Under the pieces are notes generated by a model that was not told the DNA's origin, ran no database searches, and was given only the letters and a program-made list of their open reading frames with translations. A DNA stretch of 64,000 nucleotides, taken from assembly GCA_029254005.1 (NCBI GenBank), contig JAQWYJ010000013.1, forward strand, positions 23,630 to 87,629, written 5' to 3'. Numbering within the stretch: position 1 is the first letter of the stretch; each line of letters opens with the position of its first letter. Both the position numbers and the translations under genes were made by a program. Shown piece by piece: positions 4,960 to 30,333 of the stretch. Source of the DNA: Porticoccaceae bacterium (GTDB lineage: Bacteria; Pseudomonadota; Gammaproteobacteria; Pseudomonadales; Porticoccaceae).

Positions 4960-5637
4960 TTAAAATACCCAACCATAACCAATACTGATGGCAAGAGGGT
5001 CTAAGTCTACGGAAGCGTCCACTAATTGCTCTAATCCTGCGTCAATGGAAACCTCTGTTGAAAGCGTATATTTTTTAATATCTATATTGAAATAATGACG
5101 TTCGCTAACAACGTAATCAAAGCCAGCATTTAACGCAAAACCAAAACCATCCTCATAACTAATATCTAATGCATCACCAGGATCATGGTCAAAGAAAAAC
5201 GTATAATTTATGCCAGCACCAACGTAAGGTGAGAAACCACGCCCAGAGTTAAAATGATACTGCAGTGAAAGTGTTGGTGGCAAAACTTTGGTTGAACCAA
5301 GATTTACGCCGCCATACTCAGTTTCTACCGCAGAAACCATATGTTTCGTATACCCAAGTATTGTCTCAAGGGCAATATTATCGGTTAAAAAATAACGTAT
5401 ATCCAACTCTGGAACTGTATCTGAACTGACCTTTGCCTCACCCCCAATAGAGGTTACTGAGCTCTCATTTGGCCCTAAAGTTAATACTTTTAAACCAACA
5501 AGCCAAGCACCCTTTTTCTTTATTAAATCATCATCAGCACTGACCTGAATTGCTGACAATAGTCCTGTAAAAGCACAGACTAACGATACTGATATATGCT
5601 TTGATATTGATTTCTTTCTCGAAAAATAATTATCCAT
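4960..5637 (-). CDS. OmpW/AlkL-family outer membrane beta-barrel protein
   Basis: Signal peptide, PELDIRYFLTDNIALETILG, LPPTLSLQYHF, PYVGAGINYTFFF, C-terminal IGYGWVF. Confidence 0.9.
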   Translation of the reverse strand: MDNYFSRKKSISKHISVSLVCAFTGLLSAIQVSADDDLIKKKGAWLVGLKVLTLGPNESSVTSIGGEAKVSSDTVPELDIRYFLTDNIALETILGYTKHMVSAVETEYGGVNLGSTKVLPPTLSLQYHFNSGRGFSPYVGAGINYTFFFDHDPGDALDISYEDGFGFALNAGFDYVVSERHYFNIDIKKYTLSTEVSIDAGLEQLVDASVDLDPLAISIGYGWVF

Positions 5638-5723
5638 AAGTTCCTTTGTTGTGCTTTTTAGTCAACCTAGGGCGCACGTTTTAATGTTAGTTACCCAGCC
5701 CAAAAAAGAGCTAATCTATATAT

Positions 5724-5939
5724 TTATAAGACCTCTGAGTTAAACCATTTGTAAGGTTTATCTCCAGCAACCCTGAAATAAAGCACCATGTTGACCATGT
5801 GAGTTAACAGTAAAGTAATACCTATGCCAATGGCCCATACAAGATCCTGATAGTTTTCATGCGCACCCACAGCATAGAGCGCCGAGGCTATAAGTAATGT
5901 CCAAATTGACATTATTAAAAGTGCTTTTAATGTATTCAT
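5724..5939 (-). CDS. Small hypothetical membrane protein (71 aa, two predicted TM helices)
   Basis: Two hydrophobic stretches; its ATG overlaps the ferredoxin stop (TAATG), indicating translational coupling. Confidence 0.7.
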   Translation of the reverse strand: MNTLKALLIMSIWTLLIASALYAVGAHENYQDLVWAIGIGITLLLTHMVNMVLYFRVAGDKPYKWFNSEVL

Positions 5940-6268
5940 TATTTTCTACTCACTTTGTTTTCATTTAAGTTGACGCTCACTGTGATGTCAGATTTCGGCA
6001 CTGACTGGCAAGCAAGTATGTAGCCTTCATTTATTTCAGAAATATCCAAAACATAACCAAAATCCAGTTGCGGTTTAATTTTTCCATCGACAAGTCGGCA
6101 TTTACATTTACCGCAACTACCGACCTTACATTTAAAGGGCCAGGGCACTCCAGCTCCTAAAGCTGAACTCAGCAGTGAGTCTCCACGCTTAACATTGAAG
6201 CTAATATCACTTTCTGTAAGATTAACCTCGAAATTTGCAGGTGAGCGCCTAAAAAAATTCAACATCAT
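5939..6268 (-). CDS. Plant-type 2Fe-2S ferredoxin, resembling the N-terminal domain of XylA/CymAb-type reductases
   Basis: CKVGSCGKC...GYILACQ (CX4CX2C...C); AGGAG upstream. Confidence 0.92.
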   Translation of the reverse strand: MMLNFFRRSPANFEVNLTESDISFNVKRGDSLLSSALGAGVPWPFKCKVGSCGKCKCRLVDGKIKPQLDFGYVLDISEINEGYILACQSVPKSDITVSVNLNENKVSRK

Positions 6269-6323
6269 ATAACTCCTTAATATTCACCATAGCGGTTGGC
6301 CTTAGCAATCAATTGCAAACCTG

Positions 6324-7445
6324 TTAATGTGAAAATTTCTGAGCGATCAATTTTTCTTCAGCTGATGCATATTTCTCGTCCCAATTGTCTAAATATTTTT
6401 GTACGTAGGCTCTAAATAGTGGTGGAATCAGTGTAATGACAAAGAGTGAGAAATAGCCAATTCCATAGTTTGGACCTTCTACATCATCTAACTCCCAAAA
6501 ATAGGTTTCACCCCTTACATGGTGGTCACATTGTCGACCAATTTCGATGAAAAACCAGCTGGTAAAAACTGAATCGTTGTCCCAAGAATGGCGATGTTCT
6601 ACGGGCCCGTCTTTACGAATGAGACCATAATGGCCCATAAAATTGAGTGCTTCTAAAAGAAAGTTAGCGATAACCCAAACAGAAAATAATGCAGCCACGC
6701 CTACGGCACCACCAGCCCAAACAAAGAGTACAATAGAGGGTAAGCTATATAAATAACCCAGGATCCAACGATTATCAATATTTAAGGCGGAAGATCCTCG
6801 TTTACTTAATCGCTGCTGCTCCAAAATATAGGAAAATCGAGATTGGCCCATATGCGAAAGCCATGCATGGGTATAAATATTTCGTCCTCTGGGCGCCGTA
6901 GCCGGATCATCCTCGTGACCGAGGTCTAAGTGGTGGTTATAAACATGAGCATAGGTAAAATGAGCAGCACCACTGAGCGCCATAATAAGCCTAGAAACTA
7001 AGAATCCCTCTTTTTTATTGTGCGACAATTCATGGCCATAGATAATACCTAGTCCTGCCCACAGACCGCTTGAAATTGTCGCGCCAATGAGATTAAAACC
7101 ACTAATTCCTGCTTGGTAACTAAACCCCAAAAAACTACTAATTACTATAGGCGCATCCGCATTGTATTGAAAAATACGGTAGGCTAAGACAACCTGTAGG
7201 GCTATAAAAACCGGTAACATAAAAAACATCACTGAGTACTGTAACTTTTTAATCCCATAGGATTCGCCGCTGTCATCAAAATCAGCTGGCAGGTGAATGT
7301 TTCTGGTAAGGGTATCAATAAGGGTATTGAGTGCGAATAATCCAACACCGACCCAAGTATAAGAGCCGCCAAAAAGAATGCCTAAAATAGCAATAAGAGA
7401 CATAAATGGGACGATCAAATATCGTACATTGACATAAAATTTCAT
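6324..7445 (-). CDS. Membrane non-heme di-iron monooxygenase, AlkB/XylM family (divergent)
   Basis: His boxes HELSH, HVYNHH, NFMGHYG, RQCDHH; DDPATAPRG motif; several TM helices; ITLIPPLF near the C-terminus. Confidence 0.88.
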   Translation of the reverse strand: MKFYVNVRYLIVPFMSLIAILGILFGGSYTWVGVGLFALNTLIDTLTRNIHLPADFDDSGESYGIKKLQYSVMFFMLPVFIALQVVLAYRIFQYNADAPIVISSFLGFSYQAGISGFNLIGATISSGLWAGLGIIYGHELSHNKKEGFLVSRLIMALSGAAHFTYAHVYNHHLDLGHEDDPATAPRGRNIYTHAWLSHMGQSRFSYILEQQRLSKRGSSALNIDNRWILGYLYSLPSIVLFVWAGGAVGVAALFSVWVIANFLLEALNFMGHYGLIRKDGPVEHRHSWDNDSVFTSWFFIEIGRQCDHHVRGETYFWELDDVEGPNYGIGYFSLFVITLIPPLFRAYVQKYLDNWDEKYASAEEKLIAQKFSH

Positions 7446-7626: not shown

Positions 7627-8973
7627 TTACAGATAAGCATCGTATTCTAAAAGTGTCACTCGACTATCAAATTCATGCTTCTCTTGTCGCTTGCAGCGGG
7701 CATAATTGACCTGTAATTCTGATCCGAGCATGGTCCTTACAAAGACGGAATCTTCGAAAGCATGCAATGCGTCATTCCAAAATTGTGGTAGGGATGGTAC
7801 TACATCACCGGCGTCACCAATGATGGCATTAGGCGCCTTCAAAGAGCGCTCAATACCCCACAAAGCTCCTGCCAAAATAGTAGCCACAGTCAAATATGGA
7901 TTTGCATCAGCGCCAGCAACACGATGTTCAATTCTCATGGCGCGATAATCACCTCCAGGAATACGAACTGCAGTGGTTCGATTTTCATAGCCCCAATTTG
8001 GAGACAAGGGAGCATAGCATCCAGGCACCATGCGTCGATAAGAATTAATATTTGGCGCAAAAATAGCCATGCTATCCGCCATTGTGCTCAGACAACCAGC
8101 TACAGCATTATTGAGTAATTCACTCCCTTCAGAGGTACCATTATCAAATACGTTTTTGCCATCTTGATCCAACAAGCTGAAGTGGATATGCATACCGTTA
8201 CCGACCTGATCAGCAAAGGGTTTAGCCATAAAAGTAGCCAACTTATCATGCTGGTGGGCAACACTTCGAATCGCTCGTTTGAGCATACTACCCTGATCAC
8301 AGGCGCGTAATGCACAATTTTGATGATAAAGGTTAATCTCAAATTGCGACGGCCCAAACTCTGTAATTAGCGTGTCTACGGGTAAATTTTGTGTCTTCGC
8401 AGCATCAATAATAGCATCCATTAAGCCAGCACTGTCACGCATAGTATCAATCCCATAGGTCTGCCCCCCAATGGACGGGCTTCCATCTATCGAGGTTTGC
8501 GTATGACGAGGAACTCCAAACTTATCAGGATCAATTTTTAATAAGTGGAACTCCATCTCACTTGCAACAACAGGCGTTAGCCCTAAAACCTTGAACCGGC
8601 TCAGTATGTTTTGAAGAACAGCTCGACAGTCTCCCAAATATGGTTCGCCACTACCTTCATCAGTCATCGAAACGATAACTTGGGCGGTGGGCTTATCACC
8701 CCAAGGTACTCTGACCAATGTACTGGCATCAGGTACACAAATACCATCAGTATCGCCTGTTGCTGAAATTAACTCTTCTTGATCTCGCCCCCAACAGTCC
8801 AGAGAGCAACTGCTTAAGGGCATTTTAAATCCACCCTCAAATAATTTATATATTTTATCTCTTGGTAACCATTTGCCTCTCTGGGCACCGTTTAGATCAT
8901 GCAAAAGAACCTCAAACATCTCAATATCCGGATTATTCGATAAAAATTGGTCAAGCTGCAAAATTGGCGACAT
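7627..8973 (-). CDS. Gamma-glutamyl-polyamine synthetase (PuuA/PauA-like, glutamine synthetase family)
   Basis: ASEMEFHL, EFGPSQFEINL, FMAKPF, GNGMHIHFSL, WGYENRTTAVRIP, RIEHRVAGADANPYL; near a puuD-like gene. Confidence 0.85.
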   Translation of the reverse strand: MSPILQLDQFLSNNPDIEMFEVLLHDLNGAQRGKWLPRDKIYKLFEGGFKMPLSSCSLDCWGRDQEELISATGDTDGICVPDASTLVRVPWGDKPTAQVIVSMTDEGSGEPYLGDCRAVLQNILSRFKVLGLTPVVASEMEFHLLKIDPDKFGVPRHTQTSIDGSPSIGGQTYGIDTMRDSAGLMDAIIDAAKTQNLPVDTLITEFGPSQFEINLYHQNCALRACDQGSMLKRAIRSVAHQHDKLATFMAKPFADQVGNGMHIHFSLLDQDGKNVFDNGTSEGSELLNNAVAGCLSTMADSMAIFAPNINSYRRMVPGCYAPLSPNWGYENRTTAVRIPGGDYRAMRIEHRVAGADANPYLTVATILAGALWGIERSLKAPNAIIGDAGDVVPSLPQFWNDALHAFEDSVFVRTMLGSELQVNYARCKRQEKHEFDSRVTLLEYDAYL

Positions 8974-9121
8974 AAATTAAGATCTCTAAATTGGGTTTCA
9001 AAGTGGGATTCTACAGTATCTGATAAGGCTACGTTGTTCAGCAAGCCAATAACTACCCTTTGAGGGTATGCAAACTATTGGCTTACAACGTAGTATAAAT
9101 GTTTGGCCATAGGAGCTACTT

Positions 9122-11137
9122 ATGCGTTTAAAAAAACCATCCGTCCTAGCTATTGCGTTAGTAACGCTAGCCCAAGGGTGCATCGAAGAGCAACTAACGC
9201 CAGTAGAAACACTGTTTGTGAATGGCATAATTTATACAGCTAACCAGCAACAACAATTGGTTAGCTCGCTGGGATTGAATAAGGATAAATTAACCTACAT
9301 TGGTGATGCTGAGGGCACCACTAATATTATCGATGAATATACTGAGATCATTGATCTTCAAGGCAAAATGATAATTCCTGGTTTACATGATGTTCACATC
9401 CATCTTCCAGGTATCGTGGAATCTAATAATTGTGATCTTGCTGGAAAAGCTTATTCACTGGCTGAGCTAGTTCCAAGACTCAAACAGTGTATCGCTCGAC
9501 TCAATCTCCCTAAAGGTTCTTGGCTAACCGTTGAACAATGGGGCTATGCTCAAGGCAATGAGCCGTCTGTGAACTTTCCGACCGCGCGTTCAGCACTTGA
9601 TGCTGTTTCACTGGAACATCCGATAATACTCTTGGGCGATGATGGCCATCACGGTGCTGTCAACAGTTACGCCATGAACCTAGCCACGGATAAAAATGGA
9701 GTTAAGGTAGGTCTTAACGCAGAGACACTAGCCAATGAATTCTCAGATCTGAAAAGCTTGATCGGTATTGACCGTCATGGTGAGCCCAATGGTGTACTGA
9801 ACGAAGACGCTCGAAAAATTGTTAACCTACCTAACTTATGGGGCTATCCAGAAGTAGACTTTGAAGTCTATCAAAAGATAGCGGTGCGTTTGGCCGCCTC
9901 AGGTATTACCTCAGCAATGGATGCTGCTTTGAGAATTCATGAAATCGATAATTTTGCAAAATGGGCTAAAAAACAACCATTGACTTATCGACTCACCGCT
10001 GCGTTTTATCCTGAATTTGAAGATTATCGATCAACAACAGATGCGCCAATAGAAATATCAGCGCTTATCGCTGATCTAAAGATTGCTCAAGAGCGACATA
10101 AGGAAATACATAACCTTAAAATTGATACTGCAAAGGTTTTTATCGATGGCGTTATAGAAGGCGACCCTTATGCCTATCCACCAATGTTGCCAAATGCTGC
10201 TGTGCTTCATCACTACCGGCAACCTATATTCACCATAACGGATGATGATTCTCTTGAGGTAGTGGACTATGTGGACACTAACTCAAGAGCCTGCGTGACA
10301 GTTCAAGAAAAAGGAATAGCCAATCTGTCCGGCATTTTTACCCAAAATTTCTATGCGGAAAATGGCTTTTTAGCTTCACAATGTATTAAAAGTAAAGGAG
10401 TTTTAGAAAAAGAATACAGTTTTATCAAAGGTTATACCAAAGCACTTTTTGGGGCAGGGATTAATGTGCATAGTCACGCTATTGGTGATCGGGCAGTGCG
10501 TCTTGCACTGGACACCTTTGATGCGGCAAAACGCGCAAGCCCAAACTCTGAGGCAAATGTCTCCATAGCCCATGCACAATTGATTCATCCTGATGATATT
10601 AGCCGCATTGCTCAGTTAGAGGTTTTTATGGCTTTCACCTATTCTTGGATCGAACCTTTTGATCAATATCAGATGATGGTTTCACCTTTTATTGACAAAG
10701 TATTCAACGAAAATGATCTCTTTGACTCCGACGGTTACGTTTATCAAAACACTTACCCCACCGCATCAGTTAAAAAGGCTGGCGGAATATTAGTTTCAGG
10801 CAGTGATGCGCCGGTTGAAACTCGTGACCCAAGGCCTTTTTTAAATATTGAAAAAGCGGTTACACGCAAGAATGATGTTACCGGCAGAGTATACAACCCG
10901 GACGAGCGCCTCTCTGTTGCTGATATCCTAGATGCCTACACCATAAACGGAGCCAAAATGCTAAATCAAGCAGAGATCACCGGATCACTTGAATTGGGGA
11001 AAAAAGCCGACTTTGTGATTCTAGATCAAAACTTATTAACGTTAGAGGCTGAGGGGAGAAGCGATGAAATATCAGACACTCAGATCCTATCAACCTGGTT
11101 TAATGGCAAAAAAATCTACTCTAAGCCTCAGTCCTGA
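9122..11137 (+). CDS. YtcJ/NfdA-like amidohydrolase (amidohydrolase_3) with lipoprotein signal
   Basis: Lipobox-like LAQGC; PGLHDVHIH, KVFIDG, HSHAIGDRAV, HAQL, GSDAP, GSLELGKKADFVIL. Confidence 0.85.
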   Translation: MRLKKPSVLAIALVTLAQGCIEEQLTPVETLFVNGIIYTANQQQQLVSSLGLNKDKLTYIGDAEGTTNIIDEYTEIIDLQGKMIIPGLHDVHIHLPGIVESNNCDLAGKAYSLAELVPRLKQCIARLNLPKGSWLTVEQWGYAQGNEPSVNFPTARSALDAVSLEHPIILLGDDGHHGAVNSYAMNLATDKNGVKVGLNAETLANEFSDLKSLIGIDRHGEPNGVLNEDARKIVNLPNLWGYPEVDFEVYQKIAVRLAASGITSAMDAALRIHEIDNFAKWAKKQPLTYRLTAAFYPEFEDYRSTTDAPIEISALIADLKIAQERHKEIHNLKIDTAKVFIDGVIEGDPYAYPPMLPNAAVLHHYRQPIFTITDDDSLEVVDYVDTNSRACVTVQEKGIANLSGIFTQNFYAENGFLASQCIKSKGVLEKEYSFIKGYTKALFGAGINVHSHAIGDRAVRLALDTFDAAKRASPNSEANVSIAHAQLIHPDDISRIAQLEVFMAFTYSWIEPFDQYQMMVSPFIDKVFNENDLFDSDGYVYQNTYPTASVKKAGGILVSGSDAPVETRDPRPFLNIEKAVTRKNDVTGRVYNPDERLSVADILDAYTINGAKMLNQAEITGSLELGKKADFVILDQNLLTLEAEGRSDEISDTQILSTWFNGKKIYSKPQS

Positions 11138-11200
11138 GAGCGGGTCAATTATGTAATAGTCAGTCACAGCATGACCAAAACGTTTAGAAAATGTGAATAA

Positions 11201-11995
11201 CTATGATTTTTGTTGATGGCAATATTGGACCTGATTACCAAATTCGGTAAAAATCGCTTTGGAAACAGAGTTAGATTCGAATAACCATTCTGGATGCCAT
11301 TGCAAGCCTAACATCCAGAGAGACGCTTGAGTGTCAGATTTCCACGACACCGCTTCGATTAATCCATCTTCAGCTATCGCCTCTATACAGAGTTGCTCTG
11401 ACAATACATCGATACCCTGACTATGCAGTGAATTAACACTACAACTAACCTGTCCAGTGAGTTCGTGCAACAACCCCCCACTCACAAAATTAACTAAATG
11501 TGCTGTTGCATACTGATCATCTCGAGCAACAGCCTTATCCTCTCTATGATCAATATAGCCCTCAATTTCATGCACTTTTGCATGAAGCGTTCCACCAAGC
11601 GCTACATTTAACTCTTGGAAACCGCGACATACCGCCAGAACAGGAACAGACTGTGCGACGCACTCTTTAATCAATTGAAGCGTAAGGCTATCCCTCTGTG
11701 GGTCTTCCAATGTTCCTGCTTCATGAGCAGGACCATCAAAATGATGGGGTTGGATATTGGAAGGGCTACCGGTCAAAAATAAGCCACTTAAACTAGAGAC
11801 TATATTTTGCACACTGTAAATTTTATTCAAATCGCGTATATCTTTACCATCGCCAAAAGCAGGCAATAGCATTGGCATAACCCCAGCGCCATGAGCCAAA
11901 GCATTAATATATTTTTCTCCAGCACCATGAAATTGATGTGGTCCATTGCTGATGACATCGCAGGCTATTCCAACGATAGGTAAGGTATTGAGCAT
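11201..11995 (-). CDS. puuD: Gamma-glutamyl-gamma-aminobutyrate hydrolase (peptidase C26)
   Basis: GAGEKYI, LTGSPSNIQP, AVCRGFQELNVALGGTLH, NSLHSQG, LGLQWHPEW. Confidence 0.88.
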   Translation of the reverse strand: MLNTLPIVGIACDVISNGPHQFHGAGEKYINALAHGAGVMPMLLPAFGDGKDIRDLNKIYSVQNIVSSLSGLFLTGSPSNIQPHHFDGPAHEAGTLEDPQRDSLTLQLIKECVAQSVPVLAVCRGFQELNVALGGTLHAKVHEIEGYIDHREDKAVARDDQYATAHLVNFVSGGLLHELTGQVSCSVNSLHSQGIDVLSEQLCIEAIAEDGLIEAVSWKSDTQASLWMLGLQWHPEWLFESNSVSKAIFTEFGNQVQYCHQQKS

Positions 11996-12182
11996 ACTCT
12001 ATTAGCCGTATTATTGAGTAACATTACGCCTAGTATTTAGATCTGAGGGTGAATAAGCAAGAGGTTTTTCCCACCCCTTTTGGGTGAATGACCTAAACCA
12101 TCATTTGTGTTCAAATGACGGAAAATTAGTTGGGTAACACCCTTACTCAACGTCTAACAGACCAGCAATAGCGAGAACAATC

Positions 12183-13547
12183 ATGGGTACTGCTAAAACC
12201 ACCACCGAATGGAAAGAACTAGATGCAAAACGACACTTGCATCCATTTACCGATTTTAATGATTACCAAAAAAATCATGGCAGGATTATTGAACGAGCCG
12301 AGCATATTTATATCTACGATACCGATGGCAAACAAATGCTAGATGCCATGTCCGGGCTTTGGTGTTGTAGCTTAGGTTACAGCCAACCAGAAATTGCAGA
12401 AGCAGTGAGTGCTCAGTTTAAGCAGTTACCCTACTACAATAATTTTTTCCAATGTAGCAACACTCCGGCTGTAGAACTTGCAGACAAACTGGTTGAGATG
12501 ACCCCAGAACAGTTTACCCACGTATTTTTTACTAATTCAGGATCTGAAGCTAACGATACCAACATACGATTAATTCGCCGTTACTGGGACATCAAAAAGC
12601 AACCTAAGAAACGCATTATCTTGGCTCGTACCAACGCTTATCACGGTAGTACGATCGCAGCTGCAAGCCTTGGTGGATTTGAATTTGTTCATAATCAATT
12701 TGAAACCCTCCCCTATGCACAACATATCGCTGATCCTAATTGGTACAACAATGGCGGTGACTTAAGCCCCGAGGAATTTGGCTTGCATGCAGCTCGGGAA
12801 CTGGAAAAACGTATTGATCAATTGGGAGAAGAAAATGTAGCGGCCTTTATTGCTGAACCTATTCAGGGAGCCGGTGGAGTCATCGTGCCGCCAGAAAGTT
12901 ACTGGCCTGAGGTTCGTCGCATACTAAATGAGCGTGACATTTTATTTGTTAGTGACGAGGTTATTTGTGGTTTTGGTCGCACAGGTAATATGTTTGGATG
13001 TGAAACCTATTCAATGGAACCTGATTTACTTACCTTCGCAAAAGCGGTGACCAATGGATTTCAACCTTTGGGTGGCGTCATGGTGAGTGAAAAAGTAGCT
13101 GATGTTATTACTGGTGATGGAGGTGAATTTGGCCATGGTTTTACTTATTCCGGTCACCCTATTGCCTGTGCAGCTGCCCTGGCCACCTTAAATATTATGC
13201 AACGGGATAAATTTGTTGACCATGTGGCTAATGACATTGGACCCTATTTACAAGCTAAATGGGCCGGTCTTGCCGATCATCCTATCGTGGGCCATGTCCG
13301 TGGCGTTGGCATGCTTGGCTCCATAGAATTAGTACGTGACAAAGAAAGTCGTGAGCGTCTTGAAACCGATCAAAAATCAGGCGGAGTTTGTCGCGAATTT
13401 TGCGTAGCCAACGGACTTATTATGCGTGCAGTGGGTGATTCCATGATAATCTCTCCGCCGTTTGTTACGTCACACCAAGAAATTGATTTGTTGATCGCAA
13501 GAGCAACCAAATCCTTAGACCAAACGGCTGACTATTACGCCCTCTAG
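12183..13547 (+). CDS. Class III PLP aminotransferase, SpuC-like (diamine/omega-amino acid:pyruvate)
   Basis: HLHPFTD, DAMSGLWCCSLGY, FTNSGSEAND, AFIAEPIQGAGG, DEVICGFGRTG, FAKAVTNG, HGFTYSGHP. Confidence 0.88.
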   Translation: MGTAKTTTEWKELDAKRHLHPFTDFNDYQKNHGRIIERAEHIYIYDTDGKQMLDAMSGLWCCSLGYSQPEIAEAVSAQFKQLPYYNNFFQCSNTPAVELADKLVEMTPEQFTHVFFTNSGSEANDTNIRLIRRYWDIKKQPKKRIILARTNAYHGSTIAAASLGGFEFVHNQFETLPYAQHIADPNWYNNGGDLSPEEFGLHAARELEKRIDQLGEENVAAFIAEPIQGAGGVIVPPESYWPEVRRILNERDILFVSDEVICGFGRTGNMFGCETYSMEPDLLTFAKAVTNGFQPLGGVMVSEKVADVITGDGGEFGHGFTYSGHPIACAAALATLNIMQRDKFVDHVANDIGPYLQAKWAGLADHPIVGHVRGVGMLGSIELVRDKESRERLETDQKSGGVCREFCVANGLIMRAVGDSMIISPPFVTSHQEIDLLIARATKSLDQTADYYAL

Positions 13548-13631
13548 GACATTAACAATTTAAGACAGGCACAAGATAGCGGGTGCAATTACCTGTAATC
13601 TAGTAACTATCGCACTATATAGGACACTAAC

Positions 13632-14813
13632 ATGGCAAGTGATTGGGGTAAATTCAACTGGGAAGACCCATTCAACCTAGATGATCAACTAAATGAAGAA
13701 GAGCGCTTAATAAGAGACTCAGCAGCAAGTTTTGCATCCGAAAAATTAGCGCCAAGGGTGAAAACAGCCTACAGAGAAGAGTATACCGACCGTGATATTT
13801 TTAATGAGATGGGTGAGCTTGGGCTGTTAGGTTCCACCATAGATGGTTACGGATGTCCTGGAGTAAGTTACGTTAGCTATGGTCTTATTGCGCGAGAAGT
13901 AGAGCGTGTAGACTCTGGTTATCGATCTATGATGAGTGTTCAGTCTAGTCTGGTTATGTACCCTATTTACACCTACGGTACTGAGCAGCAAAAAAATAAA
14001 TATTTACCCAAACTAGCTACTGGTGAGTGGGTCGGTTGCTTTGGTCTGACAGAGCCCGATGCAGGCTCTGACCCTGGCGGTATGAAAACCCGCGCCAAAA
14101 CAGTCGACGGCGGTTACCTCATCTCAGGTAGTAAAATGTGGATTAGTAACTCTCCAATTGCCGATGTCTTTATAGTGTGGGCAAAAACTGATGATGGCGT
14201 TATCCGTGGCTTTATATTAGAAAAAGGTATGAAAGGCCTGTCAGCCCCTAAAATTGAAGGTAAGCTAGCTCTTAGAGCATCCATAACCGGTGAAATCGTT
14301 ATGGATGAAGTATTTGTTAGTGAAGACCAATTAATGCCTAACGTCCATGGTCTTAAAGGGCCATTTGGTTGTTTAAATTCAGCACGCTATGGTATTAGCT
14401 GGGGTGTTCTGGGCGCTGCAGAAAACTGTTGGCATGCTGCTCGGCAGTACACACTGGATAGAATTCAATTTAATCGGCCCCTTGCAGCGAACCAATTGAT
14501 TCAGTTTAAGTTGGCGACCATGCAAACTGATATTAGTCTTGGATTACAGGGCTCTCTCCGTGCAGGGCGTATGAAAGAGCAGGGAAACCTAGCTCCAGAG
14601 TTGATTTCACTGTTAAAAAGAAATAACTGCACCAAAGCATTAGAAATAGCCCGGCTTGCAAGAGACATGCATGGTGGCAACGGTATTTCAGATGAATATC
14701 CAGTGATGCGACACATGCTCAATCTTGAAGTGGTTAACACCTACGAGGGAACAGCTGATGTTCACGCACTGATCCTGGGTCGAGCACAAACTGGTATTCA
14801 AGCATTTAGTTAA
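13632..14813 (+). CDS. gcdH: Glutaryl-CoA dehydrogenase
   Basis: [66 protein letters not shown]. Confidence 0.95.
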
Positions 14814-14835
14814 GGTACTCAGTATAGGAACTATT

Positions 14836-16068
14836 ATGGCAGGGCCACTCAAAGGTTATCGTGTGCTTGACATGAGTCGCATTTTGGCTGGTCCTTGGGC
14901 CGGGCAGCTACTTGCCGACCTGGGTGCTGATGTCATTAAAATAGAGCGCCCAGGCAAAGGGGATGATACGCGCCACTGGGGGCCACCCTATCTTAAAGAT
15001 ACCCAAGGTAATGATACCCAAGATGCGGCTTACTTTTTTTGCGCAAACCGAGGTAAAAAGTCAGTTTGCGTTGATATCACTAAGGCTGAAGGTCAAAAAA
15101 TAATTCGTCAACTGATTGAGCAAACTGATGTACTGATTGAAAACTACAAAGTCGGCGGTCTGGCTAAATATGGGCTGGATTATGCATGTCTAAGTCAAAT
15201 TAATCCTAAATTAGTCTATTGTTCCATCACCGGATTTGGTCAGACCGGACCCTATGCTCAGCGTCCGGGCTATGATTTTCTTATCCAAGGTATGGGTGGT
15301 TTGATGAGCGTTACTGGCGAACCTGACCATATGATAAACGGTAACACTGGCGGCCCCGTTAAGGTAGGAGTTGCGGTGACCGATATATTTACCGGCTTAT
15401 ATGCTGCCAATGCTATTCAAGCTGCTTTGCTTGAAAGACATCAGTCAGGGCAAGGACAATATATTGACCTTGCCCTACTCGACGTCCAAGCTGCAGTGTT
15501 AGCCAATCAAGCGAGCAACTATCTTATCGGCGGCCAAATTCCAGAACGTTTAGGCAATGCTCACCCTAACATTGTTCCCTATCAAGCCTTTGCGACCGAG
15601 GACAGTCACATTATTATAGCCGTTGGAAATGATGCCCAATTTCAGCGTTTTTGCGACGTGCTGCAGAAACCATTAATGGCAACAGACCCTCTTTATGAAA
15701 CCAATGCTCAACGGGTCAAAAATCGTCGTCTATTAGGCGACGCTATCAGTCTATGCCTTAAGCAAAAAGAAAGTGCCTACTGGCTGCAAGCGTTTGAACA
15801 AAGTGATGTACCTTGTGGACCTATCAACAGTATTGATCAAGTATTCGACAACCCTCAAATTATCGCTCGAAATATGCTCACAAAAGGGTATCAAGCACGG
15901 AGCGGTGAAATAACCATGGTGGCTAATCCGATTAACTTTAGCCGCTCCAGCACCACTAGTACTTCCATGCCTGAAGTTCTTGGAGAATCAACCAACAGCG
16001 TGCTTACCAGTTATTTAGAATATTCAGTGGCTGACTTAGACAAACTCAGAAAAACTGACATCATATAA
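14836..16068 (+). CDS. CaiB/BaiF family III CoA-transferase, probably a glutarate CoA-transferase
   Basis: RILAGPWAGQLLADLGADVIKIE, NRGKKS, GPVKVGVAVTDIFTG, GNAHPNIVPYQ; lies 22 bp after gcdH. Confidence 0.85.
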   Translation: MAGPLKGYRVLDMSRILAGPWAGQLLADLGADVIKIERPGKGDDTRHWGPPYLKDTQGNDTQDAAYFFCANRGKKSVCVDITKAEGQKIIRQLIEQTDVLIENYKVGGLAKYGLDYACLSQINPKLVYCSITGFGQTGPYAQRPGYDFLIQGMGGLMSVTGEPDHMINGNTGGPVKVGVAVTDIFTGLYAANAIQAALLERHQSGQGQYIDLALLDVQAAVLANQASNYLIGGQIPERLGNAHPNIVPYQAFATEDSHIIIAVGNDAQFQRFCDVLQKPLMATDPLYETNAQRVKNRRLLGDAISLCLKQKESAYWLQAFEQSDVPCGPINSIDQVFDNPQIIARNMLTKGYQARSGEITMVANPINFSRSSTTSTSMPEVLGESTNSVLTSYLEYSVADLDKLRKTDII

Positions 16069-22364: not shown

Positions 22365-23537
22365 TCAATCCACCATAATTATATTAGGTACTGGGAAACC
22401 ATTGAAATCACAAGCGCAGGTAGTGCAGTAAGCGCCCATATTGGGCATAAATATAACATCGTTCACCTCGATGTTACACGGTAATTCATGGTCGCCTAAA
22501 ACATCGATAGAGTCACAAGTTGGCCCGGCTAGAGCCCAAGTAGCTACTGCACCAGTGCGCTGACTAACAATGGTGGAAGGAAATTTCTCTGCTACTTCCA
22601 TTAACCCCCCATAGAAACCAGTATCTAGGAATAACCAGCGTTTCTGATCTCGTGTGGCCATACCTATAATTTGGGTCAGAAGGCATCCTCCCGCTCCTGC
22701 TAGAAAACGTCCAGGTTCGCCCATAACTTGAATTGATAAAGGTATAGTATCTAACTCTTGATTGATAATTTCACCAATTTCTTCGATTGAAGGATCGGTT
22801 TCAGAGAATTGGACAGGATAACCACCACCAATATTAAGTAATTCTGGTGTCCAACCATGGGCCTCCAAACGTTCAAATGCTTGCTTTGCGGCGCGAATAC
22901 CATCTACCCAATTGTTGACATTAATGCACTGAGATCCTACGTGAAAGGTGATACCATTAATTGGCATATTTAATTCCGCGGCCTTTTCAACAACAGCGGC
23001 AGCTCCCTTAGGGCTAGCACCAAATTTACCTGACAGGGGCCAGACCGAACCTTCATTACTGACATCAATACGCAGATATAATTTTGCATCTGGCTTAATA
23101 GATGCAATTTTTTCCACCTCTTCTGGAGTATCGACAACATACCAGATTATTCCCGCAGCAGCGGCATACTTTACCGAGGCCGGAGACTTAATTGGATTAG
23201 AGTAAAAAACGGTATCCATACTGACGTTTAATAACTTCATTGCATCTATCTCAGCAATAGAAGCTATCTCAAAGCAAGTGCCCTCTTCTTTAAAAATTCT
23301 TAACACCTCTGGATGAGGATTTGCTTTTACCGCGAAATGCGGTCTGACTCTGGGCATTGAGGCAATAAATCGACGGGCATTGTCACGCAGTCGCGCTTCA
23401 GACATCAAGAGCATAGGATCAACATAATCACAGGTATATGCAGAATAAGCTGCTACCTGATCTCGAATACTATCTTCTAACTTAACCCGCTTAATCTGAC
23501 TGACCGAAGAACTGCTTGGCGCTATAGCTAGACCCAT
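22365..23537 (-). CDS. Fold-type III PLP ornithine/lysine decarboxylase
   Basis: PHFAVKANP (PLP lysine), FEIASIAE, GKFGA, FHVGSQ, NIGGGYP, EPGRFL, GPTCDSIDV, GAYC. Confidence 0.9.
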   Translation of the reverse strand: MGLAIAPSSSSVSQIKRVKLEDSIRDQVAAYSAYTCDYVDPMLLMSEARLRDNARRFIASMPRVRPHFAVKANPHPEVLRIFKEEGTCFEIASIAEIDAMKLLNVSMDTVFYSNPIKSPASVKYAAAAGIIWYVVDTPEEVEKIASIKPDAKLYLRIDVSNEGSVWPLSGKFGASPKGAAAVVEKAAELNMPINGITFHVGSQCINVNNWVDGIRAAKQAFERLEAHGWTPELLNIGGGYPVQFSETDPSIEEIGEIINQELDTIPLSIQVMGEPGRFLAGAGGCLLTQIIGMATRDQKRWLFLDTGFYGGLMEVAEKFPSTIVSQRTGAVATWALAGPTCDSIDVLGDHELPCNIEVNDVIFMPNMGAYCTTCACDFNGFPVPNIIMVD

Positions 23538-23665
23538 TGATTGATCCTCATCGTAATTACCCGTAAGCCGCTATTTTAAGGAAAAAAACTGTCAATTTGT
23601 ATTGATAAACTTAACAAAATGATTATTATTACTTTATAAATTGATAATTTTTGAATCAAATTGAT

Positions 23666-24094
23666 ATGAAAAATCCTCAACCTTTAATACAGCTATTGCA
23701 AGAAAATAGCCGCCGTTCAGTCTCTGAACTTGCCAAACTATTAGGTCTTAGCAGAGCTACAATCCAGCAAGCAATGGAGAGGCTGGAGCGTACGGGAATC
23801 ATTCAAGGGTATACCATCAAATTGAATCCTAAGCATCAACAACAAAGAGTAAGCGCTTACGTTATGATCTCAGCGGTGTCACAAAAAACGCCGGACATTA
23901 TTCGAAAAATTCAAAAACTCAGACAACTAGATATGTTGTGTACTATTAGCGGGCAGTATGATTTGATGGCGATGGTAACTGAATCAACAACCGAGGCACT
24001 AGACCACGCCATCGATGCCATTGCCGCCTTAGATGGCGTGGAGAAAACACTTAGTCATATTGTATTGTCCAGAAAAAAGGACCGCGCTTTTTAA
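23666..24094 (+). CDS. Lrp/AsnC-family transcriptional regulator
   Basis: LQENSRRSVSELAKLLGLSR HTH, ISGQYDL RAM domain; divergent from the decarboxylase. ATG 23666 preferred over TTG 23651. Confidence 0.92.
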   Translation: MKNPQPLIQLLQENSRRSVSELAKLLGLSRATIQQAMERLERTGIIQGYTIKLNPKHQQQRVSAYVMISAVSQKTPDIIRKIQKLRQLDMLCTISGQYDLMAMVTESTTEALDHAIDAIAALDGVEKTLSHIVLSRKKDRAF

Positions 24095-24160: not shown

Positions 24161-25648
24161 ATGACCGAAGTAAAAAAAATTCTCAAAAAACCCAGTCTCA
24201 TTGATGCACTGATTCCAGTGGTTGCGCTGATTAGTATGCTAGCAGGGACGGTTTATGTGTTTGGTTTAGATTCCTTTGGCCCCAATCAGGTAGCACTAAT
24301 ACTCGCAGCAGCAATTGCAGCTATGATCGGTATTAAAAATGGCCATAGCTGGAGAGAAATAGAGCAGGGTATGATCGAAACCATCAGTATGTCGCTACAA
24401 GCACTGCTTATACTCCTGATGGTGGGTTCGTTAATAGGCAGCTGGATTTTATCCGGTACTGTTCCCACCATGATTTATTATGGCGTAGCACTTATGTCAC
24501 CAGATTATTTTTACCTGACTGCCTGCCTGGTATGCGCACTGCTCGGCTTCAGTATTGGTAGCTCGTGGACTGTTGCCGGTACTCTTGGGGTAGGATTAAT
24601 GGGTATTGCCGTTGCACTAGATCTTTCACCAGCCATTAGTGCTGGTGCGATCATATCTGGCGCCTACTTTGGTGACAAATTATCGCCTTTATCAGAAACA
24701 ACTAATTTAGCCGCGGCCGTTACTAGCAATGATCTGTTTGATCATATTCAGCACATGCTTTGGACCACTGTTCCTGCAATATTAATTACATTAGTGATTT
24801 TTTTCTTTATGGGCGTGGGTAGCAGCTCTAATGTAGTTATCAGTGACATTGTTGCGCTTCAAACTGCCATGAACAATGCATTTACTATTAATCCGTTCAT
24901 GCTAATACCATTGATTTTGTTGTTGGTGATGGCGGTAAAGAAACAACCTGCTCTGTCTACACTAATCTGCGGCACTGTAACTGGATGCATTTTCGCTGCC
25001 GTCTTTCAATGGCATGCAGTTCTTGCACTGGCTGATGATACAAGTCTTTCGGCAACGGCGGCCGGTTTTAAAGGCTTGTTAAGTGCCATGTTTCTTGGAT
25101 ATAACTCAGTAAGCGGCAACGAATCTTTAGATGCTCTGCTTTCTAAAGGGGGCATGAGTAGTATGCTGACAACCGTCGGCCTAGTGATTAATGCTATGGC
25201 TTTTGGTGGTGCAATGGCCCGAACTGGCTTGTTAGCGCGACTGGTTGAGGCTGCACTGAGCAGGGTTAAATCTGCAGGTGGACTCATTGCTGCCACAGTT
25301 AGTACTTGCATAGGAACTAATATTTTAGCCGCTGATCAATATCTCTCAATCGTTCTTCCTGGGCAAATGTTTGTCGAACCTTATAAGGAGCGTAAGTTAA
25401 AGTCGATAAACTTGTCCAGGACTCTTGAAGATTCAGGAACACTTACGTCAGCACTGGTGCCGTGGAACACCTGCGGTGCTTATATGTCTGCTACCCTAGG
25501 CGTTAGTACGTTTTATTATGCGCCTTTTGCTTTCTTTAATTTACTCTGTCCAGTTATCGCCATTATTTATGGTTTCTCCCTTATCGCTGTGCCTGCAATT
25601 GAAACACCAGAAACCTCTGATGTCCTTGGCACTCCCGAGGATTCATAG
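24161..25648 (+). CDS. nhaC: NhaC-family Na+/H+ antiporter or amino acid transporter
   Basis: IGSSWTVAGTLG, SGAYFGDKLSPLSETTNLA, LSRTLEDSGTLTSALVPWNTCGAYM. Confidence 0.88.
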   Translation: MTEVKKILKKPSLIDALIPVVALISMLAGTVYVFGLDSFGPNQVALILAAAIAAMIGIKNGHSWREIEQGMIETISMSLQALLILLMVGSLIGSWILSGTVPTMIYYGVALMSPDYFYLTACLVCALLGFSIGSSWTVAGTLGVGLMGIAVALDLSPAISAGAIISGAYFGDKLSPLSETTNLAAAVTSNDLFDHIQHMLWTTVPAILITLVIFFFMGVGSSSNVVISDIVALQTAMNNAFTINPFMLIPLILLLVMAVKKQPALSTLICGTVTGCIFAAVFQWHAVLALADDTSLSATAAGFKGLLSAMFLGYNSVSGNESLDALLSKGGMSSMLTTVGLVINAMAFGGAMARTGLLARLVEAALSRVKSAGGLIAATVSTCIGTNILAADQYLSIVLPGQMFVEPYKERKLKSINLSRTLEDSGTLTSALVPWNTCGAYMSATLGVSTFYYAPFAFFNLLCPVIAIIYGFSLIAVPAIETPETSDVLGTPEDS

Positions 25649-26616: not shown

Positions 26617-27966
26617 ATGAATAATTACAACAACTATAAAAATCTGCTACCTATGATAATGTTAGTGAGTCTAACAGTAAGTAGTTTTGTTCAAGCTAAA
26701 AGCGAATTGGCGGATGCTATTAACCTAGACTACCAAGATCGTCTGGGCGCTATGTTCAAAGATTTCCATGCTAATCCAGAGCTGAGTACTGCAGAGTTTA
26801 CAACTGCAAAGAAAATGGCTGAAGCATTGCGTACTCATGGCTTTGACGTCACCGAAAGTGTGGGTGGTACCGGTATTGTTGCTCTTTTAGAAAATGGTCC
26901 TGGACCGCTAGTAATGATGAGAGCAGATATGGATGGACTGCCAGTTAAAGAAATGTCTGGTCTGCCGTACGCCTCAAAGGCAACTCAACTTGACCCAATA
27001 ACTAATAAGACCTTCCCAGTGATGCACGCCTGTGGGCATGATGTGCACATTACCAGCCTTATAGGAACAGCAAAGCAAATGGTTGACCTCAAAGAGCATT
27101 GGTCTGGCACTTTAATGCTCATTGGTCAGCCTGCAGAAGAGCGTGTGATTGGTGCTAGAGCAATGATGGAAGATAATCTTTGGCAACGATTTGGCAAGCC
27201 TGACTATGCCTTGGCTTTTCATGTTTCATCTATTCTGCCCTCTGGAGTAATCAATGTTGTAGAGGGTGCGCCATTTGCAGGGGCAGATACCGTTGATATC
27301 TATGTTCGTGGCATAGGGGCTCATGGCGCTTCGCCACATGCAGGTAAGGATCCTATCGTCTTGGGTAGTCAAATTGTGATGGCATTACAAACATTAGTTT
27401 CACGAGAGTTATCCCCAAGACAACCAGGCGTGGTTACCGTAGGGGCTTTCCATAGTGGCACCAAACACAATATTATTTCTGAACTTGCTCATCTGCAGTT
27501 AACAGTGCGTAATACCAATCTAGATACGAGAGATACTCTGTTGAGGGGTATAAAGCGCATCGCTGAAAATTTAGGTCGTGCCGCTGGTTTACCAGAGGAT
27601 AAACTTCCTGAAGTTGTATATTCTGAGGAGTCAACGCCCCCCACAGTTAATAATGCTGCCATGGCTCGACGTTTAAAACAGGTCTGGGAAAACGGCATGG
27701 GCGAGGACAGAGTGACGGCAATCGAAGCAGAGGGAATGGGCGCAGAAGACTTTCCGTTTTTTACTACCGATCCTGAAATTACCAGCGTTTATTTTTCCGT
27801 TGGTGGTACGGATGCTGATTATATTGCCGCAGCAAGAAATGGAACCGGGCCCGCAGTGCCCTCTCATCACAGCCCCATATTTAAAATTGAACCAAAACCT
27901 GCGGTCACAGCGGGCATTGAAGCCACTGTTTTAGCGCTAATGGATCTACTTCCAGCCGCGAATTAA
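26617..27966 (+). CDS. Secreted M20D amidohydrolase/carboxypeptidase
   Basis: RADMDGLPV, MHACGHDVH, QPAEE, GAEDF, HHSP; signal peptide; AGGAG before ATG 26617. Confidence 0.88.
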   Translation: MNNYNNYKNLLPMIMLVSLTVSSFVQAKSELADAINLDYQDRLGAMFKDFHANPELSTAEFTTAKKMAEALRTHGFDVTESVGGTGIVALLENGPGPLVMMRADMDGLPVKEMSGLPYASKATQLDPITNKTFPVMHACGHDVHITSLIGTAKQMVDLKEHWSGTLMLIGQPAEERVIGARAMMEDNLWQRFGKPDYALAFHVSSILPSGVINVVEGAPFAGADTVDIYVRGIGAHGASPHAGKDPIVLGSQIVMALQTLVSRELSPRQPGVVTVGAFHSGTKHNIISELAHLQLTVRNTNLDTRDTLLRGIKRIAENLGRAAGLPEDKLPEVVYSEESTPPTVNNAAMARRLKQVWENGMGEDRVTAIEAEGMGAEDFPFFTTDPEITSVYFSVGGTDADYIAAARNGTGPAVPSHHSPIFKIEPKPAVTAGIEATVLALMDLLPAAN

Positions 27967-29081
27967 CCCAAAACGCTTCGCAGAGAATGTAAGCAATAAT
28001 CTACATTTTTCTGCGAACTTGCATGACCCATTAGACCAATACGCCAAACATTTCCCGCTAGGGCGCCCAGACCGGCGCCTATTTCCAAATCATACTCCTT
28101 CAGCAGCCGATTACGGACATCAGCGTCGTTAACACCCTCAGGTATAGTTACCGCATTCAATTGCGGCAGCCTATCCTGTGCAGCAACAATAAAATTAATG
28201 CCCATTTCCTCTAAACCATTCCGTAACAATACATGATTAGTATGGTGTCTGGACCAAGCATTCTCTAGTCCCTCTTCTTGAACGATTACCAAGGCCTCAT
28301 GAAGGCCATAAAGACAATTAACTGGTGCAGTGTGGTGATAGGCTCGCTTACCATCACCCGCCCAATAACCCATAACAAGGTTTAAATCTAAAAACCAACT
28401 TTGTACCTTGGTTGTTCGCGCTTTAATTTTATCTGCAGCTCGCTGGCTAAAACTTACTGGTGACAAGCCTGGCGATGATGAAAGACATTTCTGTGACCCA
28501 GAATAAATTGCATCGATGCCCCATTCATCAACTAATAACGGCGTTCCAACCAAGCTAGTAACAGCATCGACTATTACTAAGCAATCATACTGATGACCCA
28601 AATTTACTAACGTTTTAGCATCTGATTGTGCACCCGTGGATGTCTCCGCATGCACAAACGCCACAATACAGACATCTGGATTAGCCTTCAAAGCGTCCTC
28701 AAGTTTTGACGGGTCCACGGCCTTACCCCATTCATCTTGAACCATGACTGCGACACCGCCACAACGCTCTACATTTTCTTTCATACGCCCGCCAAATACG
28801 CCATTTTGACAGACAATGACCTTATCGCCAGGTTCAACTAGATTAGTAAAACAGCATTCCATTCCCGCAGAGCCTGGGGCTGATACGGCAAATGTTAATT
28901 CATTTTTTGTTTGAAATACATATTGTAAAAGTTGCTTAGTCTCATCCATCATACCGATAAAGCTAGGATCTAAATGGCCTACCGTCGGTCGAGACATTGC
29001 TTGAAGTACACGATCGCTAACATCGGAGGGACCAGGCCCCATAAGAGTCCGTTGGGGTGGGTGAAATGAAGATATAGTCAT
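27963..29081 (-). CDS. Alanine-glyoxylate/serine-pyruvate aminotransferase (class V)
   Basis: LMGPGPS, VHAETSTG, VDAVTSL, YSGSQKCLS, YHHTAP, WRIGLMG. ATG 29081 preferred (29114 possible). Confidence 0.9.
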   Translation of the reverse strand: MTISSFHPPQRTLMGPGPSDVSDRVLQAMSRPTVGHLDPSFIGMMDETKQLLQYVFQTKNELTFAVSAPGSAGMECCFTNLVEPGDKVIVCQNGVFGGRMKENVERCGGVAVMVQDEWGKAVDPSKLEDALKANPDVCIVAFVHAETSTGAQSDAKTLVNLGHQYDCLVIVDAVTSLVGTPLLVDEWGIDAIYSGSQKCLSSSPGLSPVSFSQRAADKIKARTTKVQSWFLDLNLVMGYWAGDGKRAYHHTAPVNCLYGLHEALVIVQEEGLENAWSRHHTNHVLLRNGLEEMGINFIVAAQDRLPQLNAVTIPEGVNDADVRNRLLKEYDLEIGAGLGALAGNVWRIGLMGHASSQKNVDYCLHSLRSVLG

Positions 29082-29124
29082 AGATTTTTCCTGGCTGGAT
29101 TGGCGTTTAGTCATCTCAAAAGTG

Positions 29125-30333
29125 TCATACAGTATCGGTTACAACGCCGCTTGTCTTTAGCTGCTCAATAGTCGCTGTATCAATGCCAATACTACTGAGA
29201 ATTTCGTCGGTATGAGATCCAATCTCTGGACCGGGCCACGCAGTGCTGCCGGGCGTTGCAGCCAACTTTGGCATCAAAGCGGGAATTGTAAGGGATTCAC
29301 CATTAATTTCTACTGTTTCAAATAATTCTCGGTATTGAAAATGCTTATCATCCAGCATATCCGCCGCATTATATACAGGTCCACAGGGTATTCGGTGAGC
29401 CTCTAGAATGGACATTACACTATCTAGCGGTGTTTGTAGGCACCAATTGGATAGTAAATCATCGATCTCACGTTCATAGATAACGCGATCTGCATTAGTG
29501 CGATACTTGGCGAGTGTGGCAAGATCTGGGCGCCCTATAGCCACCATTAGTCGCTTAAAAATAGAGTCTCCATTGCCACCGATCACAATATATTTTTCAT
29601 CGGCGCACTGATAAGTATTAGTAGGGACTATTCCTGTCACCGTTGTACCAGAAGGTTGCCTGACTACACCCGCACCCTGGTACTCTGGGATCACCGCCTC
29701 TAAAAGATTAAACATCGATTCATACAGGGCAATATCAACCACCTGCCCACCTGCCTCTCCCTTGTCATTCTTTTGATCCTTGACTCTTAGTGACATCAAA
29801 ATACCAATAACCGCATGTAACCCTGACACTGTGTCACCCAAACTCAAGTTAGGACGCACTGGGGTTTGTCCTGGATAACCATTAACATAACGAAACCCAC
29901 TAATTGCCTCACAAGCAGAGGCAAATCCAGGCTTGTTCGCATAAGGGCCTGTCTGACCATAACCTGAAATCCGAGCATAAATAAGGTCTGGGTTATCCTT
30001 TTGTAAGCTTTTCGGGTCAAGGCCCCACTCCTCTAGAACACCGGGACGAAAATTCTCAATCACAATGTCAGCAGTCTTCATCATTTGACGAACAATATTG
30101 CGGCCCTCAAGCGTTTTTAAATCAATTGAAATACATTTTTTATTTCGACCCAAACTACGCCACCATAGAGAAGTTCCATCTTTGACTTCACGCCAATTCC
30201 GAATAGGATCACCACCTGGAGGTTCGATCTTAATTACCTCCGCACCAAAATATCCCAACATGCAACCTGCGAATGGCCCAGCAAGTAGCTGACCCAATTC
30301 AATTACCCGTAGTCCTTCTAGTGGTTTATTCAT
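29125..30333 (-). CDS. CaiB/BaiF family III CoA-transferase (second copy)
   Basis: QLLAGPFAGCMLGYFGAEVIKIEPPGGDPIRNW, ENFRPG, PNLSLGDTVSG. Confidence 0.88.
   Translation of the reverse strand: MNKPLEGLRVIELGQLLAGPFAGCMLGYFGAEVIKIEPPGGDPIRNWREVKDGTSLWWRSLGRNKKCISIDLKTLEGRNIVRQMMKTADIVIENFRPGVLEEWGLDPKSLQKDNPDLIYARISGYGQTGPYANKPGFASACEAISGFRYVNGYPGQTPVRPNLSLGDTVSGLHAVIGILMSLRVKDQKNDKGEAGGQVVDIALYESMFNLLEAVIPEYQGAGVVRQPSGTTVTGIVPTNTYQCADEKYIVIGGNGDSIFKRLMVAIGRPDLATLAKYRTNADRVIYEREIDDLLSNWCLQTPLDSVMSILEAHRIPCGPVYNAADMLDDKHFQYRELFETVEINGESLTIPALMPKLAATPGSTAWPGPEIGSHTDEILSSIGIDTATIEQLKTSGVVTDTV

Follow-up and report, generated by a model that had tools for sequence, protein, structure and literature searches.

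We analysed a 64,000-nucleotide stretch (hereafter the window) of contig JAQWYJ010000013.1 from a Porticoccaceae bacterium (assembly GCA_029254005.1; contig positions 23,630 to 87,629, forward strand), in which genes of the kind used for polyamine gamma-glutamylation adjoin genes for the breakdown of glutarate. The locus probably serves the catabolism of lysine and the C5 diamine cadaverine and leads to crotonyl-CoA, a specificity that we infer from its sequence. At its core, genes for a SpuC-like diamine:pyruvate omega-transaminase (spuC, 12183-13547, + strand), a decarboxylating glutaryl-CoA dehydrogenase (gcdH, 13632-14813, + strand) and a family-III CoA-transferase (14836-16068, + strand) behave as one operon across the genus. 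They are preceded by genes for a glutamine synthetase (GS)-like ligase and a peptidase C26 hydrolase. Relatives of the GcdH protein (metagenome-assembled genomes (MAGs) named 'gamma proteobacterium HTCC2207') place the source organism in the SAR92 clade of the Porticoccaceae; its assembly is 2.55 Mb long and 94% complete. An earlier prediction from the DNA of the window had proposed that the cluster is tuned to cadaverine, 5-aminovalerate or lysine-derived carbon, and this idea is supported by the conserved operon, a nearby decarboxylase unit, a palindrome common to the promoters, related loci in Halieaceae and the failure to find CsiD, each of which is described below.

The genes named in that prediction are real and our map of open reading frames (ORFs) reproduces their positions exactly, but two parts of the locus had been overlooked, namely a 671-aa amidohydrolase gene inside the cluster and a lysine/ornithine decarboxylase unit 6 kb downstream of it. 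As had been noted, spuC and gcdH are co-oriented and 84 bp apart (spacer 13548-13631), with no accompanying LysR (GcdR) gene. The CoA-transferase gene starts 22 bp 3' of gcdH, and this pair is syntenic. Neither spacer contains a terminator-like or promoter-like site or an unusual fold (the fold z of the spuC-gcdH spacer is −0.7, not significant). We also looked for a structured RNA or terminator in the spuC-gcdH spacer and detected neither; this stretch is not conserved. Of the 61 genomes of the genus on which all genus-wide counts given here are based, 41 were found to have both the spuC orthologue and gcdH, and 20 neither. At least 31 genomes have the two genes side by side, separated by 16-170 bp (16-40 bp in many relatives), which is more than chance would explain.

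The locus might nevertheless consist of two unrelated neighbours, a general set for gamma-glutamylation and transamination of polyamines (putrescine or spermidine) and a housekeeping end-pathway for glutarate and lysine, that were packed together by streamlining at a site prone to rearrangement. The interval is indeed a hot spot, where the amidohydrolase gene, puuD, a TonB receptor with a sulfotransferase and an AlkB-like cassette come and go, and gcdH lies elsewhere in one subclade (with a LysR gene in one genome). Against such passive packing, the 16-40-bp spacers hold neither promoter nor terminator, the two genes have stayed adjacent in at least 31 genomes, presence and absence of the two genes are identical across the 61 genomes, and a related association in a different layout occurs in Halieaceae. 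We therefore consider a mere juxtaposition of neighbours improbable.

The subclade in which gcdH is unlinked is a sister group within the genus. Its members keep the GS-like gene, spuC and the decarboxylase gene together, with gcdH (72% identity) elsewhere and a LysR gene beside gcdH in one genome; LysR genes were found next to gcdH in genome G020 and in loci L052 and L065. The unlinked gcdH of the sister subclade was also checked for the palindrome described below, which is absent there, and no SUGCT-like transferase gene adjoins it. This arrangement indicates that the fusion of gcdH and the transferase gene behind spuC is derived and arose in the main clade. That the two modules were joined secondarily, in one SAR92 clade, is a caveat on the inference drawn in the original prediction.

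Outside the genus, we found four Halieaceae-type loci, in Congregibacter, Halioglobus, Pseudohaliea and one uncultured gammaproteobacterial MAG. All four have spuC (58-62% identity) beside gcdH; a GS-like gene (51-53% identity) is present in two of them and a CoA-transferase gene follows gcdH in two. Their layout differs from that of SAR92 in having a LuxR-type or LysR regulator gene between the genes. In the locus of the Halioglobus MAG (L063:6437-10170), an arginase-family gene ends 8 bp before gcdH and the spuC homologue lies divergently upstream, which hints at entry of a guanidino-amine or guanidino-acid into the same C5 route.

The operon encodes three proteins. The SpuC-like protein scores 553-568 bits against the solved transaminases 5ti8, 6hx9, 6gwi and 9j4z, and its score against PRK07480 (687 versus a cutoff of 510) predicts the activity of a SpuC-type diamine:pyruvate class-III transaminase. 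The product of gcdH is unambiguously predicted to be a glutaryl-CoA dehydrogenase of the decarboxylating type, as it aligns over its full length with the human GCDH structure (568 bits) and reaches 632-640 bits against bacterial GcdH structures. For the third protein (CoA_transf_3, 419 bits), the best family is the succinate-glutarate CoA-transferase NF052585, at 510 bits and below the cutoff of 750, and chains of 9br6 named succinate--hydroxymethylglutarate CoA-transferase match with 341 bits; it is a candidate succinyl-CoA:glutarate CoA-transferase of the GcoT/SUGCT type. GcdH and a glutarate CoA-transferase have no use in the breakdown of C4 compounds, and their fusion to spuC therefore argues that C5 carbon passes through the SpuC-like enzyme.

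This argument leaves room for an operon that starts lower in the pathway. The SpuC-like enzyme could be a 5-aminovalerate:pyruvate transaminase, that is, a functional DavT, in which case the unit would convert 5-aminovalerate (taken up or made elsewhere) to crotonyl-CoA and the GS-like and C26 proteins would serve another amine. A transaminase encoded directly before gcdH and the CoA-transferase gene does fit the step nearest glutarate, pyruvate-dependent 4-aminobutyrate transaminases appear further down the list of PDB matches of the SpuC-like protein, and no canonical GabT/DavT was found in the genome, where the best match to TIGR00700 is an ArgD-type enzyme with 261 bits against a cutoff of 507. 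However, the closest solved relatives of the SpuC-like protein include a 'Putrescine aminotransferase' (6gwi) and a 'Polyamine:pyruvate transaminase' (9j4z), the GS-like gene has the same candidate operator as spuC, and in the sister subclade spuC stays with the GS-like and decarboxylase genes and not with gcdH. Moreover, another pair of genes has the classic DavD/DavT layout. A GabD-like gene (TIGR01780, 644.6 versus 646.35), cut by the end of contig C142, can be joined by a 41-nt overlap to contig C29, on which a PRK06105-type omega-transaminase gene directly follows. Conserved in the genus, this pair is the clear candidate for converting 5-aminovalerate to glutarate. We accordingly regard a start of the operon at 5-aminovalerate as unlikely and favour the lysine/cadaverine reading.

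If cadaverine is the substrate, its gamma-glutamylation would fall to the GS-like protein (7627-8973, − strand), a predicted ATP-dependent glutamate-amine ligase with a full Gln-synt_C domain (307 bits) and a candidate gamma-glutamyl-diamine synthetase. In the first sample of relatives that we searched for this gene (G001-G024), orthologues of 67-79% identity occupied the same site in 14 of the 15 genomes with gcdH and in none of the nine without. The C26 hydrolase (11201-11995, − strand) is PuuD/PauD/SpuA-like and matches Peptidase_C26 over the full profile (210 bits), with 178 bits against the PuuD equivalog NF008471, below its cutoff of 266. Its closest solved structures are the 'probable glutamine amidotransferase' chains 7d4r, 7d50 and 7d53, followed by E. 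coli PuuD (6vtv), and the protein is predicted to be a PuuD/PauD-type hydrolase of gamma-glutamyl amides. A puuD-like gene is present in 29 of the 41 gcdH-bearing genomes; it adjoins spuC in about 16, and in 13 a paralogue of 45-50% identity is found elsewhere.

The genome contains a second GS-like gene, 41% identical to that of the window, on contig C47 (1-13725; L126). Around it lie genes for a DAO oxidoreductase, a Rieske oxygenase, an ADP-forming CoA ligase, a GcvT-like protein, two flavin amine oxidases, a BetI-type TetR regulator and an SBP_bac_8 binding protein. This cluster looks like a separate, perhaps methylated-amine, catabolic system, and we rejected the second GS-like gene as a part of the window's pathway since it belongs to a different amine cluster.

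Between the GS-like and C26 genes lies the exported metallohydrolase of 671 aa (9122-11137, + strand; Amidohydro_3, 188 bits), whose N-terminus (MRLKKPSVLAIALVTLAQGC) resembles a lipoprotein signal and whose HxH motif is intact. The interval from the GS-like gene to spuC is variable in the genus and contains the amidohydrolase gene and/or puuD or, in genomes that have them in place of the amidohydrolase gene, genes for a TonB receptor and a TPR-sulfotransferase. The latter two, the receptor being TonB-dependent, fill the slot in many SAR92 genomes (L014:4778-9197, L019:4944-9493 and others). Only some relatives have the amidohydrolase gene. Among 301 genomes of the order, 15 were found to contain it, and only a single one of these outside the genus has it linked to a GS-like gene. 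Its solved relatives are uncharacterised hydrolases, and in the protein atlas its relatives are unnamed amidohydrolase-family clusters only. Its export, its patchy occurrence within the genus, its rarity in the order and the near absence of linkage to GS-like genes led us to reject the amidohydrolase as a core enzyme of the pathway and to treat its gene as accessory.

Were the amidohydrolase central, the substrate might be another C5 amine or a conjugate, such as an N-acylated diamine, a guanidino-amine or piperidine, that is freed outside the cytoplasm by this enzyme and whose product is handled by the GS-like/C26 pair. The amidohydrolase gene has its promoter region and candidate operator in common with the GS-like gene, one unrelated genome also pairs the two genes, and the arginase-family gene upstream of gcdH in the Halioglobus locus could be seen in the same light. 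Yet the amidohydrolase gene is missing from most relatives in which the GS-like, spuC, gcdH and decarboxylase genes are retained, no P450 or oxidase is present and no relative of the amidohydrolase has a known function. Such a substrate is highly improbable.

The promoters of the locus have a palindrome of the form ACCC-N4/5-GGGT in common. In the window, one copy (ACCCTTTGAGGGT, 9055-9067) lies in the divergent promoter region of the GS-like and amidohydrolase genes and another (ACCCCTTTTGGGT, 12073-12085) in that of puuD and spuC; both are candidate operators. There are three matches in the window versus 0.48 expected, and these two are among only six intergenic copies in the entire 2.55-Mb assembly. 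The palindrome is found upstream of spuC in all 14 relatives, often with a second, weaker copy, and 10 of 13 relatives have its TACCC-N5-GGGTA version ~85-125 bp before the start of the GS-like gene. The ligase promoter and the promoters of puuD and of spuC-gcdH-transferase thus appear to be under one regulator. With gcdH and the transferase gene in the spuC unit, one regulator at this site would induce the enzymes of the diamine step and of the C5-specific end along with the ligase.

Two other intergenic copies lie near transporter genes. An APA-family basic amino acid/polyamine permease gene on contig C40 was considered and dropped, as the nearby palindrome is not conserved in 13 relatives. 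One ACCC-N4-GGGT copy (contig C13, 104197) lies 109 bp upstream of a gene for a BCCT-family transporter, which is followed by a thiolase gene. The SAR92 palindrome is absent from the Halieaceae loci, which have a different common string (AGTGTCGCA-like) upstream of spuC.

Those Halieaceae loci offer a candidate for the regulator. The LuxR/GerE-type protein that they encode is 46% identical to a protein of the source genome (contig C106, 37123-37950; L153:7124-7951) with a 190-aa N-terminal domain that was assigned to no family. Its homologue is present in 37 of the 41 gcdH-bearing genomes of the genus versus 2 of the other 20. We consider this LuxR-type protein a candidate regulator, nothing more.

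A source of cadaverine is suggested by the unit downstream. A fold-type-III lysine/ornithine decarboxylase (22365-23537, − strand) scores 221 bits against the Lys/Orn decarboxylase of V. vulnificus (2plj) and 182 against the L/ODC of Selenomonas (5gjm). Divergent from it is a gene for an AsnC/Lrp-type regulator (23651-24094, + strand; HTH_24 and AsnC_trans_reg), whose best NCBIfam match is the lysine-responsive LysM (93.5 bits, below the cutoff of 180), followed by a gene for an NhaC-family transporter (24161-25648, + strand; TIGR00931, 432 versus a cutoff of 370), a candidate carrier of basic amino acids or an amino acid/diamine carrier. The second-best family of the latter is the arginine/ornithine antiporter ArcD (371 bits versus a cutoff of 650). 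The NhaC gene is syntenic with the decarboxylase and AsnC genes in relatives. Within the genus, the decarboxylase gene was found mostly together with gcdH (37 of 41 gcdH-bearing versus 1 of 20 gcdH-lacking genomes). In the window, the order 3' of the CoA-transferase gene is TonB receptor, DUF885, decarboxylase, AsnC regulator, NhaC carrier and M28 and M20 hydrolases; in L014, L015, L016, L022 and L050 the decarboxylase gene lies convergently within ~15 bp of the CoA-transferase gene. The direct contact in many relatives suggests an ancestral block in which the GS-like gene and spuC-gcdH-transferase were followed by the decarboxylase gene and by asnC-nhaC-M28-M20.

Taken together, these genes outline a possible route. 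Lysine would enter the cell, perhaps through the NhaC/ArcD-like carrier, or be set free by the neighbouring M28/M20 hydrolases, and the fold-type-III decarboxylase would turn it into cadaverine, which might alternatively be taken up directly. The GS-like ligase would use ATP to gamma-glutamylate one amino group of cadaverine and the SpuC-like enzyme would move the free amino group to pyruvate, although it could equally act on free cadaverine. An unlinked aldehyde dehydrogenase would then yield (gamma-glutamyl-)5-aminovalerate, from which the C26 hydrolase would cleave off glutamate. Glutarate would be formed by the unlinked omega-transaminase and the GabD-like dehydrogenase, the CoA-transferase would convert it with succinyl-CoA to glutaryl-CoA, and GcdH would release crotonyl-CoA and CO2, with electrons passing to the electron transfer flavoprotein (ETF). 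In the main clade, gcdH and the CoA-transferase gene would have been recruited into the spuC transcription unit. ETF is present in the genome. CsiD was not found there, which makes the CoA route the only glutarate route seen.

Several observations weigh against this route. The ligase had been called PuuA-like and has a full-length GS-fold domain, but it reaches only 223 bits against the PuuA equivalog NF045547 (cutoff 650), about the same as against the type III and type I GS (GlnA) models; by sequence it falls far short of a PuuA equivalog. Our search detected no C26 hydrolase in 12 of the 41 genomes with gcdH (several of which are 96-98% complete), so that the gamma-glutamyl branch may be dispensable, may be completed by a different enzyme or may be a side route with a protective role. 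Ornithine might be the preferred substrate of the decarboxylase, and together with the ArcD-like antiporter the enzyme could act in export or pH homeostasis instead of catabolism. Between 7627 and 16433 there is no regulator gene, the nearest being the AsnC-type gene at 23651. A PuuB/PauB-type oxidase is not linked to the locus, as there is no DAO domain among the 25 ORFs between 57 and 31026 that were scanned for domains, and no PF00171 aldehyde dehydrogenase is encoded on the window's contig. Lastly, the genomes of the genus are kin and in part genome-reduced, and the counts of presence and absence consequently overstate their independence.

The lack of linked genes had been foreseen, in that aldehyde dehydrogenases, DavT/GabT and an ABC importer were said to lie outside the window. 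In addition to the missing PF00171 match, there is no second class-III transaminase on the window's contig, and SBP_bac_8 matches, which would mark a PotF/SpuD-type ABC importer, occur only on contigs C47 and C7. The aldehyde dehydrogenases found elsewhere in the genome score 238-374 bits against the PuuC model (cutoff 850), and a PuuC-type dehydrogenase was thus not found.

The missing oxidase allows a further, more specific proposal. In SAR92, gamma-glutamylation might proceed without an oxidase, with a SpuC-type transaminase instead of a PuuB/PauB flavoprotein deaminating gamma-glutamyl-cadaverine, and a single regulator (candidate: the LuxR-type protein) at ACCC-N4/5-GGGT turning on the ligase, the transaminase and the C5 end together. 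We put this forward tentatively and hold the full combination to be possible but doubtful. If true, the oxidase-free route would form a separate type of polyamine catabolism that needs no O2 and is tuned to cadaverine, in abundant coastal bacterioplankton. Polyamines and amines derived from lysine belong to the labile fraction of the dissolved organic nitrogen of the sea, and SAR92 bacteria, whose genomes are small, are abundant in coastal waters. That their locus is compact, conserved and apparently co-regulated points to cadaverine and lysine as substrates that SAR92 cells are built to use. The fused spuC-gcdH operon could also provide a marker for reading metatranscriptomes, and the fusion may be a natural case in which operon structure tells which substrate (C5, not C4) an otherwise promiscuous polyamine module uses in the cell. 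Our search of the literature on SAR92 and polyamines found nothing specific.

Two other parts of the window stood out. A cassette of OmpW, ferredoxin and AlkB-like desaturase genes (4960-7445) separates a SPOR gene from the GS-like gene only in the source genome, G007 and two MAGs; in other relatives the SPOR gene directly adjoins the GS-like gene, which fits an insertable OmpW-ferredoxin-desaturase block. Further downstream (27963-30333, − strand), a second family-III CoA-transferase gene, whose product scores 244 bits against the succinate-glutarate model, immediately precedes a gene for a class-V aminotransferase (BhcA/PhnW-like) in the same direction.

Among known systems, the closest to the upper part of the locus is that of Pseudomonas (spuI-spuABC(DEFGH), pauA-D and spu2; reviewed in PMC9397018), which has the same trio of GS-like ligase, C26 hydrolase and SpuC-type pyruvate transaminase. 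That trio handles cadaverine as well as putrescine (PMC10606097). The spu2 cluster of P. putida, with two gamma-glutamylation genes and spuC2, is induced by cadaverine only, and in P. aeruginosa either SpuC or PauB1 restores growth on cadaverine (PMC10606097). Spu-like clusters of the order GS-puuD-GS-spuC also occur in other genomes of the order to which SAR92 belongs (L023/L024), and the GS-like protein of the window is 33-42% identical to the ligases of the spu-like clusters that we retrieved. The window differs from the Pseudomonas systems in having one ligase gene rather than two to seven, in lacking the spuDEFGH ABC importer and a linked PauB oxidase or PauC dehydrogenase, in its operator, in the absence of a regulator gene from the cluster and in the placement of spuC in one operon with gcdH and the CoA-transferase gene.

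The lower part resembles the gcdR-gcdH-gcoT unit of Pseudomonas, in which gcdH is likewise followed by a family-III CoA-transferase gene and glutaryl-CoA is made from free glutarate. The same pair with a divergent LysR gene is found in a Cellvibrionaceae MAG (L052) and an uncultured gammaproteobacterial MAG (L065). In the window, by contrast, the pair has no LysR gene and is transcribed behind spuC, and the parallel CsiD/LhgO route was not found.

Lysine is converted to cadaverine, 5-aminovalerate and then glutarate in the routes that begin with LdcA in P. aeruginosa and with LdcC/CadA in E. coli, where PatA, PatD, GabT and GabD follow. The SAR92 locus would follow this overall logic with other enzymes: its decarboxylase is of the alanine-racemase-fold Lys/Orn type and not a large AAT-fold LdcA/CadA, the middle enzymes are pyruvate-type omega-transaminases rather than GabT, and the pathway ends with GcdH rather than CsiD. 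The chemistry of the pathway is therefore not new, being already known from Pseudomonas. What is new is the architecture, in which the transaminase and the C5 end are joined in one operon, without an oxidase, an ABC importer or GcdR, and are accompanied by a fold-type-III decarboxylase and a new operator.

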